DNA of 64,000 nucleotides. Source: a virus. Its lineage: Duplodnaviria; Heunggongvirae; Uroviricota; Caudoviricetes. This document shows, one piece after another, positions 24,620 to 39,282 of this stretch; positions within the stretch are counted from its first letter, which is position 1; every line of letters starts with the position of its first letter. A program made the translations under genes and the position numbers. The stretch lies in the IMG/VR virus record IMGVR_UViG_3300032116_000060, positions 39,086 through 103,085 of that record. One strand, written 5' to 3'. The notes under the pieces were generated by a model, which was given only the letters and a program-made list of their open reading frames with translations, ran no database searches and was not told the DNA's origin.

Positions 24620-24638
24620 TTACAAATATACGAAAAAT
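24620..24638 (-). promoter_or_regulatory. class-A promoter box
   Basis: TTACAAATATACGAAAAAT. Confidence 0.4.
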
Positions 24639-24660
24639 ATCTGATATATCCAAAAAAAGT

Positions 24661-25116: not shown

Positions 25117-25137
25117 ATTATTACTTTTTTAGTTTTG

Positions 25138-25212
25138 TGCCCATAGAAGGATTCGAACCTTCAATTGGATGGCTTCTAAGACCATTGCGTATGCCAATTC
25201 CGCCATACGGGC
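25138..25212 (-). tRNA. tRNA with Leu anticodon TAG but class-I (short variable arm) architecture
   Basis: acceptor GCCCGUA/UAUGGGC; anticodon stem AUGGU/GCCAU, loop CUUAGAA; variable region only 6 nt. Confidence 0.45.
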
Positions 25213-25220
25213 ATTTTGAG

Positions 25221-25306
25221 TAGAGAGTAAGAGGTTCGAACTCTTGCGACTTTTACATCCTACCTGTTTAGCAAACAGGCCCCTTCACCAACTTGGGTAA
25301 CTCTCT
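25221..25306 (-). tRNA. tRNA-Ser(GCT)
   Basis: 86 nt with a long variable arm; anticodon loop UUGCUAA; acceptor AGAGAGU. Confidence 0.6.
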
Positions 25307-25371
25307 ATTTTGGTAGTTTTTAATCTCAATTCGGGTAAGAGGAGATACCAGCTCCAGAACTCGGGGTTGGG

Positions 25372-25443
25372 GGTGAATAATGGGATTCGAACCCATACTA
25401 ACAGAACCACAATCTGTCGTGCTACCCTTACACAATAAACACC
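25372..25443 (-). tRNA. tRNA-His(GTG) with G-1
   Basis: anticodon loop UUGUGGU; extra 5' G opposite C73; two U-U mismatches in the acceptor stem. Confidence 0.5.
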
Positions 25444-25451
25444 ATATTAAG

Positions 25452-25521
25452 TTGCGTGTTTGAGGTTTGAACTCAATTGGTCATCCTTATGAGAGATAAC
25501 TCTTTTCCACTAAGCCACGCA
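25452..25521 (-). tRNA. second tRNA with CAT anticodon (atypical D arm, 7-bp anticodon helix)
   Basis: T arm UUGAG-UUCAAAC-CUCAA; anticodon loop CUCAUAA; weak D arm. Confidence 0.4.
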
Positions 25522-25526
25522 GTTTG

Positions 25527-25597
25527 AGGTGGATATTGGATTTGAACCAATGTGAATGGTTTTGCAGACCACCTCCTCGCCTCTCGGACAATCCACC
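25527..25597 (-). tRNA. tRNA-Cys(GCA)
   Basis: acceptor GGUGGAU; U73 discriminator; anticodon loop CUGCAAA. Confidence 0.6.
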
Positions 25598-25603
25598 CTA
25601 TTG

Positions 25604-25675
25604 TAGCCCCTAAAGGATTCGAACCCTTACTCCAACATCCGTAGTGTTGTGTGCTATCCGTTACACCAAAGAGCC
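25604..25675 (-). tRNA. tRNA-Arg(ACG)
   Basis: anticodon stem CAACA/UGUUG, loop CUACGGA; acceptor has three G-U wobbles. Confidence 0.5.
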
Positions 25676-25679
25676 ATCG

Positions 25680-25871
25680 TTATTTCCATTGAGTCTTTCG
25701 GCTGTGTTTCCAACTTCTACACTCTCTTACTCTTACAACCTTACCACTACCATGTCTTTTTGCTCTGAACGATGATGGATGACAATCATAATACCAACTT
25801 CCATTTCGTTTGTTACAAATCATACAATAGTTGTAGATTTGATTCATTTGTTTTACTCTTTCTTCTTTCAT
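25680..25871 (-). CDS. small Cys/His-rich zinc-ribbon-like protein
   Basis: 63-aa ORF (CMICNK...DCH). Confidence 0.3.
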   Translation of the reverse strand: MKEERVKQMNQIYNYCMICNKRNGSWYYDCHPSSFRAKRHGSGKVVRVRECRSWKHSRKTQWK

Positions 25872-26074
25872 TTTGCATTAGGTTTAACTAATGCTTGTCA
25901 AATAATTGTTTCATAGTTTTACATTTATATTATTCACCGCCGTAAATAACAACTTTATCAAATTTTAATCCACCCCAATACCTTATAATAACACATTTAT
26001 TGTTGTAGCAAAATTCTATACTTGGATAATTGTTTTTTAAATCAAAGTTTATTTTCATAGTTTTATTCATTTAG

Positions 26075-26146
26075 CACCCCCTAAAAGATTCGAACTTTTA
26101 TCAACGGTTTTGGAGACCGGTATGCTAGCCATTGCACCAAGGAGAT
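26075..26146 (-). tRNA. tRNA-Trp(CCA)
   Basis: anticodon loop CUCCAAA; G73; acceptor with two G-U pairs. Confidence 0.55.
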
Positions 26147-26237
26147 AGTTAATAAGGCGTTACGCATCCATCTGTAACTTTACTTTTTTTGAGTCCGGAT
26201 GTGGCCACACCAACTCTGGGAACGATTACCTTATTTG

Positions 26238-26311
26238 TTGGAATAGAAAGACTCGAACTTTCAACTTTCACCGTATCAGGATGACACTCTAACCAATTGA
26301 GTTATATTCCA
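26238..26311 (-). tRNA. tRNA-Ile(GAT)
   Basis: perfect acceptor UGGAAUA; D arm ACUC-AAUUGGUUA-GAGU; anticodon loop CUGAUAC. Confidence 0.6.
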
Positions 26312-26317
26312 ATTTTG

Positions 26318-26393
26318 TATAGATGGTTGGATTCGAACCAACGTGTTCCACTTCCCAAAAGTGGCGAGATAAACCTGCCTCCTCTACATCTAT
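26318..26393 (-). tRNA. tRNA-Pro(TGG)
   Basis: anticodon stem CCACU/AGUGG, loop UUUGGGA. Confidence 0.55.
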
Positions 26394-26443
26394 ATGGCCG
26401 GCTCCGATTTTTGTATAGAACGTTGCCGAAGTAAACTATTTTG

Positions 26444-26517
26444 TGAACCCGAATGGACTCGAACCATTGACTTTCTCATTAAAAGTGAGAAGCTCTAACC
26501 AACTGAGCTACGAGTTC
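26444..26517 (-). tRNA. tRNA-Lys(TTT)
   Basis: D arm GCUC-AGUUGGUUA-GAGC; anticodon loop CUUUUAA. Confidence 0.65.
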
Positions 26518-26523
26518 ATTGTG

Positions 26524-26596
26524 TGGAGCCTTGAGGAATCGAACCGCATCCTTCCGCTCTTCAGGCGGACGTACGCACCAGCTATACGAAAGCTCC
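26524..26596 (-). tRNA. tRNA-Phe(GAA)
   Basis: anticodon stem UCCGC/GCGGA, loop CUGAAGA. Confidence 0.6.
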
Positions 26597-26601
26597 AATT
26601 G

Positions 26602-26683
26602 TGCCTGCAGATGGACTCGAACCACCGAACTCCGAAGAGAGGAGATTTACAGTCTCCAGCAATTGCCACTATGCGATACAGGC
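26602..26683 (-). tRNA. tRNA-Tyr(GTA)
   Basis: 82 nt with a long variable hairpin UCUCUUCGGAGU; anticodon loop CUGUAAA. Confidence 0.6.
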
Positions 26684-26691
26684 ATAAATTG

Positions 26692-26765
26692 TAGAAGATA
26701 TAGGATTCGAACCTATGACCCTTTGGATGTAAACCAAATGCTCTAACCAACTGAGCTAATCTTCT
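26692..26765 (-). tRNA. tRNA-Val(TAC)
   Basis: perfect acceptor AGAAGAU; anticodon loop UUUACAU. Confidence 0.65.
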
Positions 26766-26796
26766 ATTTTCCCACAATGTCAAAGAACCTTTCTTG

Positions 26797-26868
26797 CGTT
26801 GATGGTAGGATTCGAACCTACGACCAATAGATTAACAGTCTACTGCGCTACCACTGCGCCACACCAAC
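26797..26868 (-). tRNA. tRNA-Asn(GTT)
   Basis: D arm GCGC-AGUGGUA-GCGC; anticodon loop CUGUUAA. Confidence 0.6.
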
Positions 26869-28380
26869 ATAAACTAAAAAACCCCCTAACTTTTTCAGTT
26901 AGAGGGTTCTTCTAATATTGTTCAAAAATCTATATTTTATCCCACATCGGTATCCTCTAACTTATTCGTGCTAATATAATCCACCTTGCCTAAATTCAAG
27001 AATGACGGATTCTCTATCGCACTAAACATACTAATCCCCGTCCATTCACATCTCTGTGTAGGCAGTTGATAATCTGTATGTAAGTTAAGAGTTTTCATTT
27101 TCTTCTAATATAAGTATAACACTATTTCTTTTTAAATCAATTTAGCTAAAAAATAAGTAACCGGTCTTCAAAATACTCCATCCAAGTCATGCTCTGGTTA
27201 ATACCCGCCTCGACAAGTTACTCATAAAAATGAAAGATTTGTAGGGTGGTTCTTTCAAAAGGCCTAGCTACAGCCGTTTTTACCATCAATTAAATTCGCT
27301 TTGTTGAGATTGTTTAAGGCGAAAATCCCCTACGGAAAACCATACCATCATACATTTTTTCATTTTTTATTAAAGTGGAACTTTCAGTTGTCTAGAAGAT
27401 ACATCTAACTTTCTGCCGGAAACCACTACGAAGCTATCATCATTGGAATCGAACCAACATTAACCATTATGATAATAAAATAAGGATGAGAATACTCCAT
27501 ATTGTGAACCAGCTTTTGAAAGATTATTTGTTTCCTTTCGTTTCCACTTCCTTTTGAGAAGTACCAATTCAATGTCGGTTGGTATAGCCAACCAATCTTA
27601 GAGTTACATCTTACTCTCATCATACTCATTTTCTTCTACTCTGCCGAGCAGATTCACACTTGCGGTGTTAGAAACCTTTCAAATGAATCACATTCCCCTT
27701 GAGGAGGTCTGTGGCAGTGAACAACTCACTACTATGTAGACACCTTTCGGATGTAACTGGCAAACTCTTTTTCTTATTTTTATTTATAGTTTTTACACCG
27801 AAGTAAAAATGAGTTTGGTTTGTAGATGGTTTCAGGTAGTGGTTTGCCTTAAGCTCCGTTATCTTTTGAACAACGGAATACTTTACTACCCGATACGATA
27901 TCCCTATCGTCATACTTTAAGTCATCTTCATTTATAGGTGTTGGTACACTCTATAAAAGGATGGTAACAGCACCACCTGTACACTATCTTATCTCAAAAG
28001 GTTTCCCTAATTTGATTTTAAGATAACTTTGGTATTGAATCACGCAATGATAAAGAGAGATTAAGTCTTTACTTCTTGCATTAATTCTATGAGTTATTCT
28101 TATTGGTATTCCTACCTCAACTGAACAATCTACACTTGCCCAGTCACCTCTACTCCTCTCCTAAAGTGTTACCCTCAGATACTAAGCATTTGTGATACCT
28201 CACTTGCATACTCGAGCTCATCTCCCTTACGGGGGAGGAGCCGCAAATCGATTAAACCAAACCGATTCACTTTATCCTTCTTTCGAAGTTTATTTAACGA
28301 CCATATGCGGCCACTCTATTATGTAACACAAAGTTACTATATAGAAATTAGTTTCAATAATTTAAAGAACTTTTCTTTGT

Positions 28381-28416
28381 TGTTACAAATATACGGAAGT
28401 TTTTTTTAATTTCCAA
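28381..28416 (-). promoter_or_regulatory. class-A motif copy 1 of a tandem array in the non-coding region
   Basis: TTACAAATATACGGAAG...TTCCAAGC. Confidence 0.4.
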
Positions 28417-28482
28417 GCATTTTAACAACTTTTTTTTCCATTTGAAACCGAGTATCTTTCATCACCTATAAGTTTCAAACTT

Positions 28483-28518
28483 TAACAAATATACGAAACT
28501 TTTTTCGTATTTCCAAAT
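28483..28518 (-). promoter_or_regulatory. class-A motif copy 2
   Basis: AACAAATATACGAAAC...TTTCCAAATC. Confidence 0.4.
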
Positions 28519-28627
28519 CTTTTTTAACAAAATGAAGTAGTGGTGTCCGGCTTTATCCTACCACGCGCCGGGTAGTTACACATTCGGTTTTATTAGATGT
28601 TGGCTTCAACCACTATCTCATTTTGTT

Positions 28628-28664
28628 ATTACAAATATACGGAAGTTTTTTCAAAGTTTCAAGC
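28628..28664 (-). promoter_or_regulatory. class-A motif copy 3
   Basis: TTACAAATATACGGAAG...TTTCAAGC. Confidence 0.4.
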
Positions 28665-28757
28665 ATTTTTGTAATTTTTTTTGTGAACCTCATCCAAGCC
28701 CTGTTAAGGATACCGTCTGAATACTACTCTCACAAAAATCTAGTAGTGTAGATTTGT

Positions 28758-28825
28758 TGCAACGCCTAGGAATCGAACCTAGTTAATTTGGCTTATGAGA
28801 CCAACGAGATACCTCACCTCCCGCC
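28758..28825 (-). tRNA. tRNA-like CAT-anticodon element with defective acceptor pairing (possible pseudogene or initiator-like)
   Basis: T arm CUAGG-UUCGAUU-CCUAG; anticodon loop CUCAUAA; D arm plausible; 5' acceptor strand does not pair. Confidence 0.3.
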
Positions 28826-28854
28826 TGCTATTTTAAAGAACTTATTTTATTATT

Positions 28855-28888
28855 CTTCAAATATAAGAAAGTTTTTCCAAACTTCCAA
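28855..28888 (-). promoter_or_regulatory. class-A-like motif copy 4 (upstream of the OMP-like gene 28895..29338)
   Basis: CAAATATAAGAAAG...CTTCCAAGC. Confidence 0.35.
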
Positions 28889-28894
28889 GCTTTT

Positions 28895-29338
28895 TTATTT
28901 TAATTTGTAAGATAAACCTAAACCAGGTGTAAAAGTATCTCCTACAATGTTTCCTATCATCCAAAGTTTTAGGTCTTTAGATTTTAGTGGGTTATACCCT
29001 ATGAAGGCATTTACCTTATGCCCATCTGATGTCGGTTGAACACCTGCTCCCGCCATCCATTTATCTTGTGCGATAGTTTTAATCACACCGTATTTCATTT
29101 GGTTGGAAATCGTTCCACTTTTTGGTGATATAAGGTTATTATCGTTGTATTTACTTCCGATAAAAACTCCCCAACCATTTTTAATGTAACCCAAAGTTAG
29201 GTAACCATCTACCGCTTTGTTTGTTGCAGAAGCAAATACCTCCTGCGCTTTCGCATTGATACTTATTCCGAGTACCAAAGCCACTACTAATAATTTTTTC
29301 ATTTGATAGGTGAACCCAAAGAATCCTCTTTTGCCCAC
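28895..29338 (-). CDS. secreted OMP-like small beta-barrel protein
   Basis: signal peptide MKKLLVVALVLGISINAKAQ; C-terminal beta-strand pattern ending LSYKLK. Confidence 0.55.
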   Translation of the reverse strand: MGKRGFFGFTYQMKKLLVVALVLGISINAKAQEVFASATNKAVDGYLTLGYIKNGWGVFIGSKYNDNNLISPKSGTISNQMKYGVIKTIAQDKWMAGAGVQPTSDGHKVNAFIGYNPLKSKDLKLWMIGNIVGDTFTPGLGLSYKLK

Positions 29339-29601
29339 TTTAATTTTAAATCTGAAACCTTTTTGAAAGCAATAATTTTATTATTCAACTTTTCAATTTT
29401 TTTGTTATACTTTTCAACTAATAAATGCTTAGAAGCCGGGTCATCTTCAATTACTTCTACCCATTCAATTTTTCTATTTAAAACTTTTATTTCATTTTTA
29501 AATAATTCAATTGATTTGGTTTCATTCATTATCGAAGGGTCTAACCCAATTCCAATACTATTAAAAAATAATAACATTGATACACTCAATTTTTCAAACA
29601 T
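29299..29601 (-). CDS. hypothetical coiled-coil protein
   Basis: 100-aa ORF; overlaps the downstream gene by 40 nt, so the start is uncertain. Confidence 0.4.
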   Translation of the reverse strand: MFEKLSVSMLLFFNSIGIGLDPSIMNETKSIELFKNEIKVLNRKIEWVEVIEDDPASKHLLVEKYNKKIEKLNNKIIAFKKVSDLKLKWAKEDSLGSPIK

Positions 29602-36610: not shown

Positions 36611-36626
36611 TCAAATATACGAAAAA
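36611..36626 (-). promoter_or_regulatory. class-A promoter box
   Basis: CAAATATACGAAAAAT. Confidence 0.4.
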
Positions 36627-36635
36627 TATTTGATT

Positions 36636-36896
36636 TTACCAAAACTTTTTATTAACTCCTAACTTACCCTCTTTCGCCAATTCTAATGTTGATTTAGTTT
36701 TTTCCAACTTAGCTTCCTTTTGCCTCTTTTGGAAAGCCTTTTCATAGTGAGGGGGGAATTTATTTTCTACCGAAATAGGCCCATTTGGAAACTTATCTAA
36801 ATCGTATTTCCATATTGATTCTACCCCATCATCATCTTTATAGATATGCTGAAACTTACGAGGTTTTTCAGTTGATTTTTCAGGCCATCTACTCAT
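36636..36896 (-). CDS. hypothetical protein
   Basis: 86-aa ORF; class-A promoter 20 nt upstream. Confidence 0.5.
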   Translation of the reverse strand: MSRWPEKSTEKPRKFQHIYKDDDGVESIWKYDLDKFPNGPISVENKFPPHYEKAFQKRQKEAKLEKTKSTLELAKEGKLGVNKKFW

Positions 36897-38680: not shown

Positions 38681-39282
38681 TATTTATTATGTTCTTTTGT
38701 TTCGCAAAGTTTTTCCAATTGTTCCCACTTATATTTAGGCCTTTCATTCAAAAACACAAAACATCTCCATTTACCTGATTTTTCAAAATATATGTGTTTT
38801 TCTAAATAAGCTGGAATTGCAGCGTTTGTTGCGATTCTTCTAACAGGATTATCAAAGTGTAATGTTATTAACACCGTCAGATTTTCAACATCATCCCACT
38901 TTCTTTCTTGCTCCTCTAACAATCTCCACTCTCCTCTATTAAGATATTGATCCTGTAATATACAATTCAAATAAGAGAATGTTTGCTTTAAGTTCTCCAT
39001 ATTATCGGAGAACGATGCGGCTGGTGCTCCATGTCCCTTATCATAAATGTTCTTCACATAATCTTCCGCATCCGATGTTTTAACATTAGGTTCTTTATAG
39101 AAATCCATAGTTCCCCTATTCACATTTGTAGGTCGATTTATAGAACGATACCTAATCCATAATGGTTGTTCTAATGATTGAGAATAAAGTGTTTCAAACA
39201 CATTATTTTTAATCCTTACATCTTGTGAATAACCAACAGTTGTAAAGAAGGATAATAACGAAATTAATAGCAAATGTTTCAT
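38680..39282 (-). CDS. secreted DNA/RNA non-specific endonuclease (NUC, His-Me finger) -like
   Basis: signal peptide MKHLLLISLLSFFTTVGYSQ; DKGHGAPAA (DRGH-like catalytic motif). Confidence 0.55.
   Translation of the reverse strand: MKHLLLISLLSFFTTVGYSQDVRIKNNVFETLYSQSLEQPLWIRYRSINRPTNVNRGTMDFYKEPNVKTSDAEDYVKNIYDKGHGAPAASFSDNMENLKQTFSYLNCILQDQYLNRGEWRLLEEQERKWDDVENLTVLITLHFDNPVRRIATNAAIPAYLEKHIYFEKSGKWRCFVFLNERPKYKWEQLEKLCETKEHNK

Follow-up and report, generated by a model that had tools for sequence, protein, structure and literature searches.

A full-length GOLLD RNA gene in a probable stable RNA island of a freshwater jumbo phage

Introduction

This report concerns a stretch of 64,000 nucleotides (nt) from a virus of the Caudoviricetes (IMG/VR record IMGVR_UViG_3300032116_000060, positions 39,086 to 103,085), hereafter the window, and within it a region of about 2 kb (26869-28894) that a first-pass annotation, made from the sequence alone, had singled out as protein-free, rich in hairpins and adjacent to a tRNA cluster. 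The annotation proposed that this locus might hold a very large structured RNA of the GOLLD, ROOL or HEARO kind, or alternatively several small RNAs or a replication or packaging origin. We find that the large RNA is GOLLD, encoded at full length on the minus strand, and that the remainder of the region is also organised, with predicted promoters, boxA-like motifs, tRNA-like elements and small structured elements on either side of the GOLLD gene.

GOLLD RNA was reportedly described by Weinberg et al. in 2009. Expression as a discrete RNA whose level rises in lytic growth counts among its defining traits. Cryo-electron microscopy of the env-38 GOLLD, which is encoded downstream of a Met tRNA, has defined an RNA of 833 nt whose 5′ region spans residues 1-420 and whose 3′ region spans 421-833, and which contains an internal linker that is disordered (Kretsch et al., 2025; PMC12286853). 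No protein is needed for GOLLD RNAs to fold into a closed 14-subunit nanocage, a D7-symmetric homo-14-mer assembled via kissing loops and A-minor bridges (bridge nucleotides L21a, L21b and L20-J13/15), and the biological role of this structure is unknown (PMC12286853).

Results

All features of the region are encoded on the minus strand, as are the neighbouring protein genes and the 23 tRNA genes of the window, which run from 26868 down to 16924. The region therefore lies 5′ (upstream) of the tRNA array in the sense of transcription, and not downstream of it as first recorded. The longest open reading frame (ORF) overlapping it in any frame encodes 81 amino acids (aa), as had been noted, and both this ORF (27668-27913) and another of 67 aa (27426-27629), neither of which had been taken for a protein gene, are rejected as artefacts because they fall inside the GOLLD RNA, within its helices. 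The description as protein-free is thus accurate for ORFs above 81 aa, but it overlooks a 53-aa ORF that is conserved in frame in diverged relatives. The hairpins quoted in the first pass were found where it had placed them: GGTTGG-TATAG-CCAACC (27578-27594) is a conserved GOLLD helix in the Rfam alignment, and CCGGC...GCCGG (28550-28575) is the variable arm of a small RNA that we call X. GOLLD fills only about 41% of the 2 kb, and the other ~1.2 kb is organised as well, all of it on the minus strand (Table 1); the earlier interpretation understated how composite the region is.

Table 1. Features of the region, listed in the direction of transcription (coordinates are those of the window)
Feature	Start	End	Strand	Basis and remarks
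Predicted promoter P4 (TTGGAA-N17-TATATTTG)	28858	28888	minus	motif; predicted start ~28853
boxA-like motif GTTCTTTAAAA	28831	28841	minus	11/11 to GYTCTTTAANA; 2 nt before tRNA-Met-like gene
tRNA-Met-like gene, anticodon CAT	28758	28828	minus	Rfam tRNA, 31.3 bits (gathering threshold 29); no ARAGORN call in window
Predicted promoter P3	28632	28662	minus	motif; predicted start ~28627, at first base of X
Candidate small RNA X, three-helix	28523	28631	minus	fold z = -3.2; covariance model; relatives aligned
Predicted promoter P2	28486	28516	minus	motif; predicted start ~28481, at first base of Y
Hairpin Y	28441	28480	minus	near-invariant 21-nt loop AUAGGUGAUGAAAGAUACUCG; covarying stem
Predicted promoter P1 (proximal GOLLD promoter)	28386	28416	minus	motif; predicted start ~28381; homologous promoters in relatives
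boxA-like motif GTTCTTTAAAT	28360	28370	minus	10/11 to GYTCTTTAANA; GOLLD leader
Small variable leader hairpin GTAAC-TTTGT-GTTAC	28323	28337	minus	between boxA-like motif and GOLLD core
GOLLD 5′ domain, ~420 nt	27894	28312	minus	homology to other GOLLD loci; outside Rfam model
GOLLD 3′ domain	27483	27893	minus	RF02032 match; covariation
tRNA-like minihelix	27435	27474	minus	read from sequence; starts 8 nt after GOLLD 3′ end
Mid domain, ~190 nt, conserved unclassified structured segment	27240	27430	minus	blocks kept in haplotypes differing 10-19%
Hairpin Z	27153	27225	minus	invariant apical 22-mer; covarying stems
Small protein gene, 53 aa (MKTLNLHT...KLEDTDVG)	26937	27098	minus	called as gene in many assemblies; frame kept
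Intrinsic-terminator-like hairpin	26876	26912	minus	16-bp stem and U run; ends 7 nt before tRNA-Asn

The identity of the large RNA is given by Rfam 15, with which the whole window was scanned at gathering thresholds and 26700-29100 at E values up to 10. These scans returned GOLLD and tRNA, the few other matches being insignificant. The single non-tRNA match of the window is GOLLD (RF02032), on the minus strand, which scores 303.4 bits (E about 7e-86, or 7.4e-86 unrounded) against a gathering threshold of 150 bits and spans model positions 1-416 of 416, so that it is not truncated. No match was obtained to ROOL, HEARO, OLE, transfer-messenger RNA (tmRNA) or introns, and the cmscan check that the first pass had suggested has thus come down on GOLLD among the very large structured phage RNAs it had considered beside the tRNA cluster. 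Within the 3′ domain an A-rich linker occupies about 27838-27770, and in the Rfam alignment a long-range pseudoknot helix joins GUUACAUC (~27755) to GAUGUAAC (~27610).

RF02032 covers only the universally conserved 3′ half of GOLLD, and the 5′ half was located by homology. The flank of the Rfam match is matched by the records of two uncultured huge phages (LR756502 and LR745206), and a conserved 31-nt pattern in this flank retrieved 24 IMG/VR contigs. BLAST similarity to these 26 loci is sharply bounded at 28312 and 27482, and the GOLLD element therefore measures about 830 nt (28312..27483). Its halves of ~420 and 411 nt compare with 420 and 413 nt in env-38. Both huge-phage loci hold a full-length GOLLD, with a tRNA directly 3′ of it in LR756502 (642 kb; locus L001) and a tRNA-Met upstream of it in LR745206 (635 kb; L002).

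An alignment (A2) of 15 distinct full-length GOLLD sequences, from the window and 14 other loci, shows that the predicted helices are maintained by compensatory change. RNAalifold placed 191 pairs on A2, 113-114 of them with compensatory double changes. Canonical pairing is seen in 98.0% of sequence-pair cells, as opposed to 38-43% when the partners are slid by 1-3 columns, and the covariation score of 0.59 compares with 0.08-0.12 for the slid controls; none of 500 shuffles reached either the observed score or the observed percentage of paired cells. Covariation supports both halves of GOLLD helix by helix: helices 2-22 covary in the 5′ domain, and for the 3′-domain architecture with its pseudoknot, helices 25 and 26 are 98-100% paired with 7 of their 9 pairs covarying.

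GOLLD is bracketed by two tRNA-like elements. The CAT-anticodon element upstream, noticed in the first pass for its broken acceptor stem, is present, but its status as a tRNA is marginal, since it barely clears the Rfam threshold, is not called by ARAGORN and forms its acceptor stem only with a bulged G5. Its homologues upstream of GOLLD in two relatives (L007 and L010) are called as tRNA-Met, with compensatory changes in the anticodon and T arms, and a Met tRNA is likewise upstream of GOLLD in L002. From these sequence comparisons, the element is probably not debris but a functional if unusual tRNA with a CAU anticodon, or else a mimic of a tRNA. Downstream, the acceptor/T-arm minihelix that the first pass had spotted is real. 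It consists of an acceptor-like stem of 6-7 bp (TATCAT/ATGATA) and a T arm with the loop TTCGATT, without D and anticodon arms, and in haplotype L027, which differs by 15% here, the stem is kept by two compensatory pairs (TATCTA/TAGATA). A whole tRNA stands at the exact position of the minihelix in L001, and tRNA-like sequence, as read by eye, at the same position in L044 and L052. The minihelix was also considered as a piece of a permuted tmRNA, and this was rejected because the 5′ strand of its acceptor runs directly into the T arm. Many relatives carry a tmRNA next to GOLLD, convergent or upstream (L004, L006, L014, L042, L059, L063, L104, L114, L143, L180 and L278); neither ARAGORN nor any of the Rfam tmRNA models finds one on either strand of the window, including the GOLLD 3′ flank, where such a gene had been sought after the example of these relatives.

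Four promoter-like repeats had been reported in the region, and these are real: the pattern first used has five matches in place of 0.17 expected. On the minus strand the repeat reads TTGGAA-N17-(c)GTATATTTG, with the 3′ box TAnnTTTG. The pattern TTGRAA-N17-TATATTTG occurs 10 times in the window against 0.48 expected, in every case on the minus strand, and four copies (P1-P4) fall within 500 nt upstream of GOLLD. TAnnTTTG is the -7 element of the Flavobacterium/Bacteroidota sigma-A, where it takes up positions -12 to -5 (PMC9723704), and the transcription starts in Table 1 are therefore predicted from this placement. Six further copies of the motif (12546, 18376, 24623, 36612, 36918 and 40559) also lie on the minus, coding strand. 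The two copies that were checked (24623-24653 and 36612-36642) sit just upstream of minus-strand ORF starts, and the motif TTGGAA-N17-TATATTTG is probably the main class of host-sigma-A promoter used by the phage. One to three similar promoters are found upstream of GOLLD in the relatives.

A 15-nt repeat, AAGTTCTTTAAA(T/A)TA, follows both P1 and P4. Correspondingly, the GOLLD leader and the stretch before the tRNA-Met-like gene each have a boxA-like motif (GTTCTTTAAA[A/T]), 11-13 nt downstream of the predicted start; the homologous tRNA in L010 is preceded by the same motif. The consensus used for comparison, GYTCTTTAANA, is an experimentally derived one (PMC5725501). In 14 of 15 distinct relatives the transcribed strand carries GTTCTTT[AG]A at a distance of 46-78 nt before the GOLLD core, as opposed to an expectation of 0.04 per 260 nt. 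Between the motif and the core, the window has a small hairpin, and relatives carry other hairpins in this place (ACAACAC/GTGTTGT and TCAAC/GTTGA).

Upstream of P1 lie the two elements X and Y, which are conserved in aligned relatives of 70-76% identity. Y is a hairpin whose stem covaries (GTTTGAAAC/GGTTTCAAA becomes GTTTGGAAC/GGTATCCAAAC in relatives) and whose loop sequence has exact matches in 85 IMG/VR stretches. Among 58 eligible distinct contexts, 46 have GOLLD downstream of Y on the same strand at a distance of at most 1.5 kb, and GOLLD never precedes Y. A boxA-like motif lies within 120 nt downstream of Y in 43 of 67 contexts, mostly 13 to 18 nt after the loop sequence and hence just past the hairpin. 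In several relatives the order is promoter, Y, boxA and GOLLD, which is the order boxB then boxA of rrn leaders; the window has the extra promoter P1 between Y and boxA, and L168 has two tandem copies of Y. Y was also considered as a hammerhead or as a C/D-box kink-turn, and contains UGAUGA and GAAA, but it lacks a stem II between them and a partner CUGA strand.

X is built from a variable, covarying outer stem, a junction (GUUGAAGCCA), a short helix with a conserved loop (UAAUAAAACCGA), a variable hairpin and the segment AAAGCCGGAYAC. Nine sequences were used to build a covariance model (R1), which finds one match in each of 75 loci, representing 60 distinct sequences; pairing in the alignment obtained with it reaches 99.6% of cells, with covariation at 8 of 13 pairs, figures that lean towards the structure of the model since the alignment was fitted to its own covariance model. 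The X motif is present in at least 119 IMG/VR contigs and is distributed more widely than Y, since 44 of its 103 contexts have GOLLD downstream. A pair of tmRNA and tRNA-Met often stands directly before X, and several contigs show the order tmRNA, tRNA-Met, X, Y and GOLLD. Five matches to X were obtained in species genomes, all of them Bacteroidota metagenome-assembled genomes (MAGs). Two of these are modules of tmRNA, tRNA-Met and X on 2-kb contigs, and two fall inside ordinary ORFs (histidine kinase-like in L279, a 264-aa membrane protein in L276) and are probably due to chance, about one chance match being expected. Neither X nor Y has a match in Rfam 15, permissive E values included.

The 3′ flank of GOLLD begins, after the minihelix, with a conserved mid domain that has no Rfam match and is common to L039-L041, L053, L058, L067, L069, L074, L075 and L077. 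Compensatory changes are seen in it between haplotypes (GGC/GCC to GGT/ACC; GAAAGA/TCTTTC to GAGAGA/TCTCTC). It is followed by hairpin Z, which comprises an outer stem of 10-13 bp, an internal loop, an inner stem of 4-5 bp and the apical sequence AACCAGAGCAUGACUUGGAUGG (27199..27178). This apical 22-mer (AACCAGAGCATGACTTGGATGG) is found exactly in 49 IMG/VR phage contigs. A search in which its central five bases were left free added only four true homologues, each with one substitution, and no variant with 1-5 mismatches was present in the other loci fetched. The stems are wholly different between contigs and always pair (mean z of -2.5 against flank shuffles, 40 distinct sequences), and in the subtype that resembles the window (type A) 13 of 20 pairs cov­ary, with a score of 0.47 against 0.07-0.15 for slid controls. 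Z always occurs in tRNA arrays, often directly after tRNA-Met or before an odd tRNA-Met-like gene, and in about half of its contexts GOLLD is no more than 1.5 kb away, on one side or the other. Rfam gives no match to Z, and 185,579 species genomes contain no occurrence of it. Three candidate roles for Z were considered and dropped: the loop has no complementarity of 9 nt or more elsewhere in the 64-kb window that would make an antisense target; the sequence AACCAGAG is shared with the hairpin ribozyme but the Rfam models give no match, which leaves that idea as speculation; and an anticodon-stem mimic, equally speculative, would call for the U33 and the regular 7-nt loop that Z lacks.

A small conserved ORF and a terminator-like hairpin close the unit just before the array of 22 tRNAs. 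The ORF encodes 53 aa, and in one haplotype 17 substitutions cause only 6 amino-acid changes, while in another, 26% divergent, deletions of 30 and 9 nt leave the frame intact. In 11 relatives, homologues of 29-53 aa have the same N terminus (MKTLxLHT-like), most of them also the C terminus LEDTDVG, and they are always downstream of a Z of the window type. Although no Pfam family matches the predicted protein, this pattern of conservation indicates that the ORF is very probably a real small gene.

Discussion

The region very likely forms the upstream end of a stable RNA island on the minus strand, with the full-length GOLLD gene as its centrepiece. Judged from its sequence, this gene is a bona fide, intact GOLLD with both domains kept, since every sequence-level feature that defines the family and could be looked for here is present: the complete 3′-domain model, the pseudoknot, the 5′ domain, a length above 800 nt and a phage setting beside tRNA genes. 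It resembles env-38 in the ~420-nt 5′ domain, in total length (~830 against 833 nt), in the A-rich linker and in the tRNA-Met-type gene upstream. It differs in that no tRNA is embedded in the linker and that the upstream tRNA-Met-like gene has a defective acceptor stem, neither of which affects membership; the cage is known for env-38, whereas here we have the sequence of a gene. The copy is a new member of a known family in a typical context and not a new kind of RNA. GOLLD is among the largest and most elaborate RNAs of bacteria and phages, and as one more copy by phage tRNAs is to be expected, it adds little by itself.

More may be learnt from the way in which the gene appears to be embedded. 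Host RNA polymerase carrying sigma-A likely starts at P1-P4, and these tandem promoters would give a high output comparable to that of an rRNA operon. As an untranslated RNA of 830 nt is an obvious substrate for Rho, we propose for GOLLD a cassette that combines the tandem promoters with boxA antitermination. boxA is known to shield long non-coding transcripts such as rRNA and CRISPR arrays from Rho via NusB/NusE and the Nus complex; in Bacteroidetes, CRISPR arrays are reported to be preceded by putative boxA motifs (PMC7665894). The conserved place of boxA and Y in the GOLLD leader suggests antitermination in the style of rRNA operons, and on balance we favour a scenario in which the boxA RNA, possibly together with Y in the arrangement boxB then boxA, recruits NusB/NusE and the Nus complex, which would protect the transcript from Rho and aid its folding during transcription. 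Such a cassette predicts that GOLLD depends on host Nus factors and is vulnerable to Rho.

The parallel with rrn leaders, lambda nut sites and CRISPR boxA elements lies in the combination of strong tandem promoters and a boxA-consensus leader at the head of a long, untranslated, structured transcript that bears tRNAs, and in the hairpin that relatives carry immediately upstream of boxA, as boxB is placed. It is not complete: the unit of the window is phage-encoded and yields GOLLD and tRNAs rather than rRNA, a boxC was not found, Y exceeds boxB in size and carries a near-invariant 21-nt loop, and both Nus binding and Rho resistance of this unit are predictions. A functional analogy may also be drawn with the put RNA of HK022, a promoter-proximal antiterminator that acts in cis, given that X and Y are 40-110 nt long, have conserved unpaired bases and sit at a predicted start upstream of a long operon. 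They share no sequence similarity with put, however, and X is often preceded by a tRNA instead of a promoter.

The strongest live rival concerns the boxA step alone and holds that the GTTCTTTAA motif is not boxA, being instead the site of a phage regulator, a signal for RNase processing or part of the mature 5′ ends of GOLLD and of the tRNA-Met-like RNA. We regard this as a serious possibility, albeit not the probable one. The spacing between motif and promoter varies from 14 to 26 nt, the upstream copy is only 2 nt from the 5′ end of the tRNA-like element, as would suit a processing signal, and the motif is unenriched in the whole window. Yet its agreement with the experimentally derived consensus extends to 10-11 of 11 positions, its setting is the transcribed leader of long untranslated units, as for boxA in rRNA operons and CRISPR arrays, and in the relatives a hairpin precedes it, just as boxB comes before boxA in rrn leaders.

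The tRNA-type elements that bracket GOLLD in turn predict how its ends are made. It is conceivable, with chances slightly short of even, that RNase P and RNase Z cut at these flanking elements and that cleavage by RNase P at the minihelix forms the GOLLD 3′ end. The minihelix recalls other tRNA-like 3′-end modules, namely the minihelix substrates of RNase P and, as a eukaryotic analogue, the mascRNA of MALAT1, in standing 8 nt past a long non-coding RNA, but it has no encoded CCA and lacks the D and anticodon arms, and its cleavage is predicted. X, Z and the tRNA-Met-like RNA would be released as separate stable RNAs of tRNA size.

The 14 tRNA genes that come after the terminator-like hairpin (26868..25137) have no copy of the promoter motif before them, the next one being that at 24623-24653, and their expression may therefore depend, speculatively, on read-through from the GOLLD unit. 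That a modified polymerase reads through the terminator at 26876 into these genes is possible, though less likely than not.

Two further alternatives challenge the stable RNA island as such, and both fare poorly. The region might produce only small independent RNAs from its own promoters, with the GOLLD match as a decaying relic. The arrangement of P4, P3 and P2, each directly before a short structured RNA (the tRNA-Met-like gene, X and Y, respectively), does vindicate part of the suggestion that several small RNAs are driven by tandem promoters, and the strain haplotypes diverge by 5-6% inside GOLLD. However, the main element is GOLLD: the score against the full Rfam model is twice the gathering threshold, 98% of pairs are kept across both domains with abundant compensatory change, the ends are sharply conserved in 26 loci, and P1, boxA and Y make up a conserved leader dedicated to it, all of which renders a relic very improbable. 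The other alternative is that the AT-rich repeats and hairpins are a replication or packaging origin rather than RNA genes, for which repeated motifs of 40-60 nt, the many hairpins and the lack of a long ORF might speak. Cumulative GC skew, however, is monotonic through the region, with no inflection, the repeats are a promoter motif that recurs at six other sites of the window, always on the transcribed strand, and the stems covary like RNA helices, with conserved loops that recur beside tRNAs in many unrelated phage contigs; an origin is thus less credible still. That the large RNA belongs to another giant family (ROOL, HEARO/OMEGA or OLE) or is a group I or II intron is refuted by the Rfam scans, even if a phage with a tRNA cluster is a setting shared with ROOL (RF03087), which is likewise a large, ornate RNA of phages and prophages found near tRNAs, forms an RNA-only nanocage and has no known function, but is unrelated to GOLLD in sequence and fold.

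Returning to the island with GOLLD at its centre, several points weigh against parts of this interpretation. The promoters, the transcription starts, the processing sites and the antitermination are all predictions, and formation of a nanocage by this particular sequence is predicted by analogy. GYTCTTTAA shows no enrichment in the window, with 4 matches where 2.4 are expected, and the case for boxA rests for this reason on conserved position and not on counts. The copy in the P1 leader has a T at the last position of the consensus, one relative (L001) has no boxA-like motif, and the consensus itself is that of PMC5725501. The terminator-like hairpin before the tRNA array could equally mean that a promoter of the tRNA genes was missed by the motif search. 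Finally, a Bacteroidota host is weakly suggested by the promoter type and by two short contigs with tmRNA, tRNA-Met and X that are binned with Bacteroidetes MAGs.

Neither Rfam 15 nor the searchable literature was found to describe the GOLLD leader with its tandem promoters, its Y and its boxA, the tRNA-type element next to the 3′ end of GOLLD, or X, Y and Z, whose core sequences were not found there in a relevant context. Each of X, Y and Z is seen again in 53 to more than 119 phage contigs. Relatives repeatedly show the order tmRNA, tRNA-Met, X, promoter, Y, boxA and GOLLD, followed by Z. A more ambitious proposal is that X, Y, Z and perhaps the mid domain are undescribed classes of small structured phage RNAs that travel with GOLLD as a stable-RNA operon, in which Y and boxA would serve as a nut-like leader for GOLLD, while X and Z would be partners, cargo or assembly cofactors of the cage or would act on the translation or tRNA machinery of the host. 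Taken as a whole we consider this proposal unlikely, and the leader architecture, the 3′ tRNA-type element and X, Y and Z are leads rather than conclusions. Were it true, the locus would for the first time give GOLLD, an RNA without a known function since 2009, defined genetic partners, and X, Y and Z are in any event concrete candidates for interaction with the nanocage or for its cargo.

The source of the window is a freshwater jumbo phage of ~288 kb, since exact protein matches to the flanking 135-aa gene and to the 53-aa ORF lead to many near-identical environmental contigs, one of them of 288,575 bp, and IMG/VR has relatives of 288,673 and 287,455 bp. Lakes are among the sources of the near-identical contigs (for example samples 3300043443, 3300008259 and ERZ27280291). 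Relatives at 65-79% identity are found in other metagenome-derived viral contigs of IMG/VR, and the GenBank phage collection holds no close relative, giving only tRNA-level matches and the GOLLD of the two uncultured phages of more than 630 kb. Three haplotypes of the phage (L027, L028 and L029), compared with 26400-29400 of the window, are all 99.9-100% identical in the region of promoters, X and Y. Divergence begins inside the GOLLD 5′ domain in one haplotype and inside the 3′ domain in another, and reaches 10-26% in the 3′ flank, a mosaic that suggests recombination breakpoints within GOLLD. Past the tRNA array, two of these haplotypes (L028 and L029, 19370-20408) carry genes for an RNA ligase (PF09414) and an AAA_33 kinase-like protein, which are reminiscent of tRNA repair of the T4 type (Pnk/Rnl).

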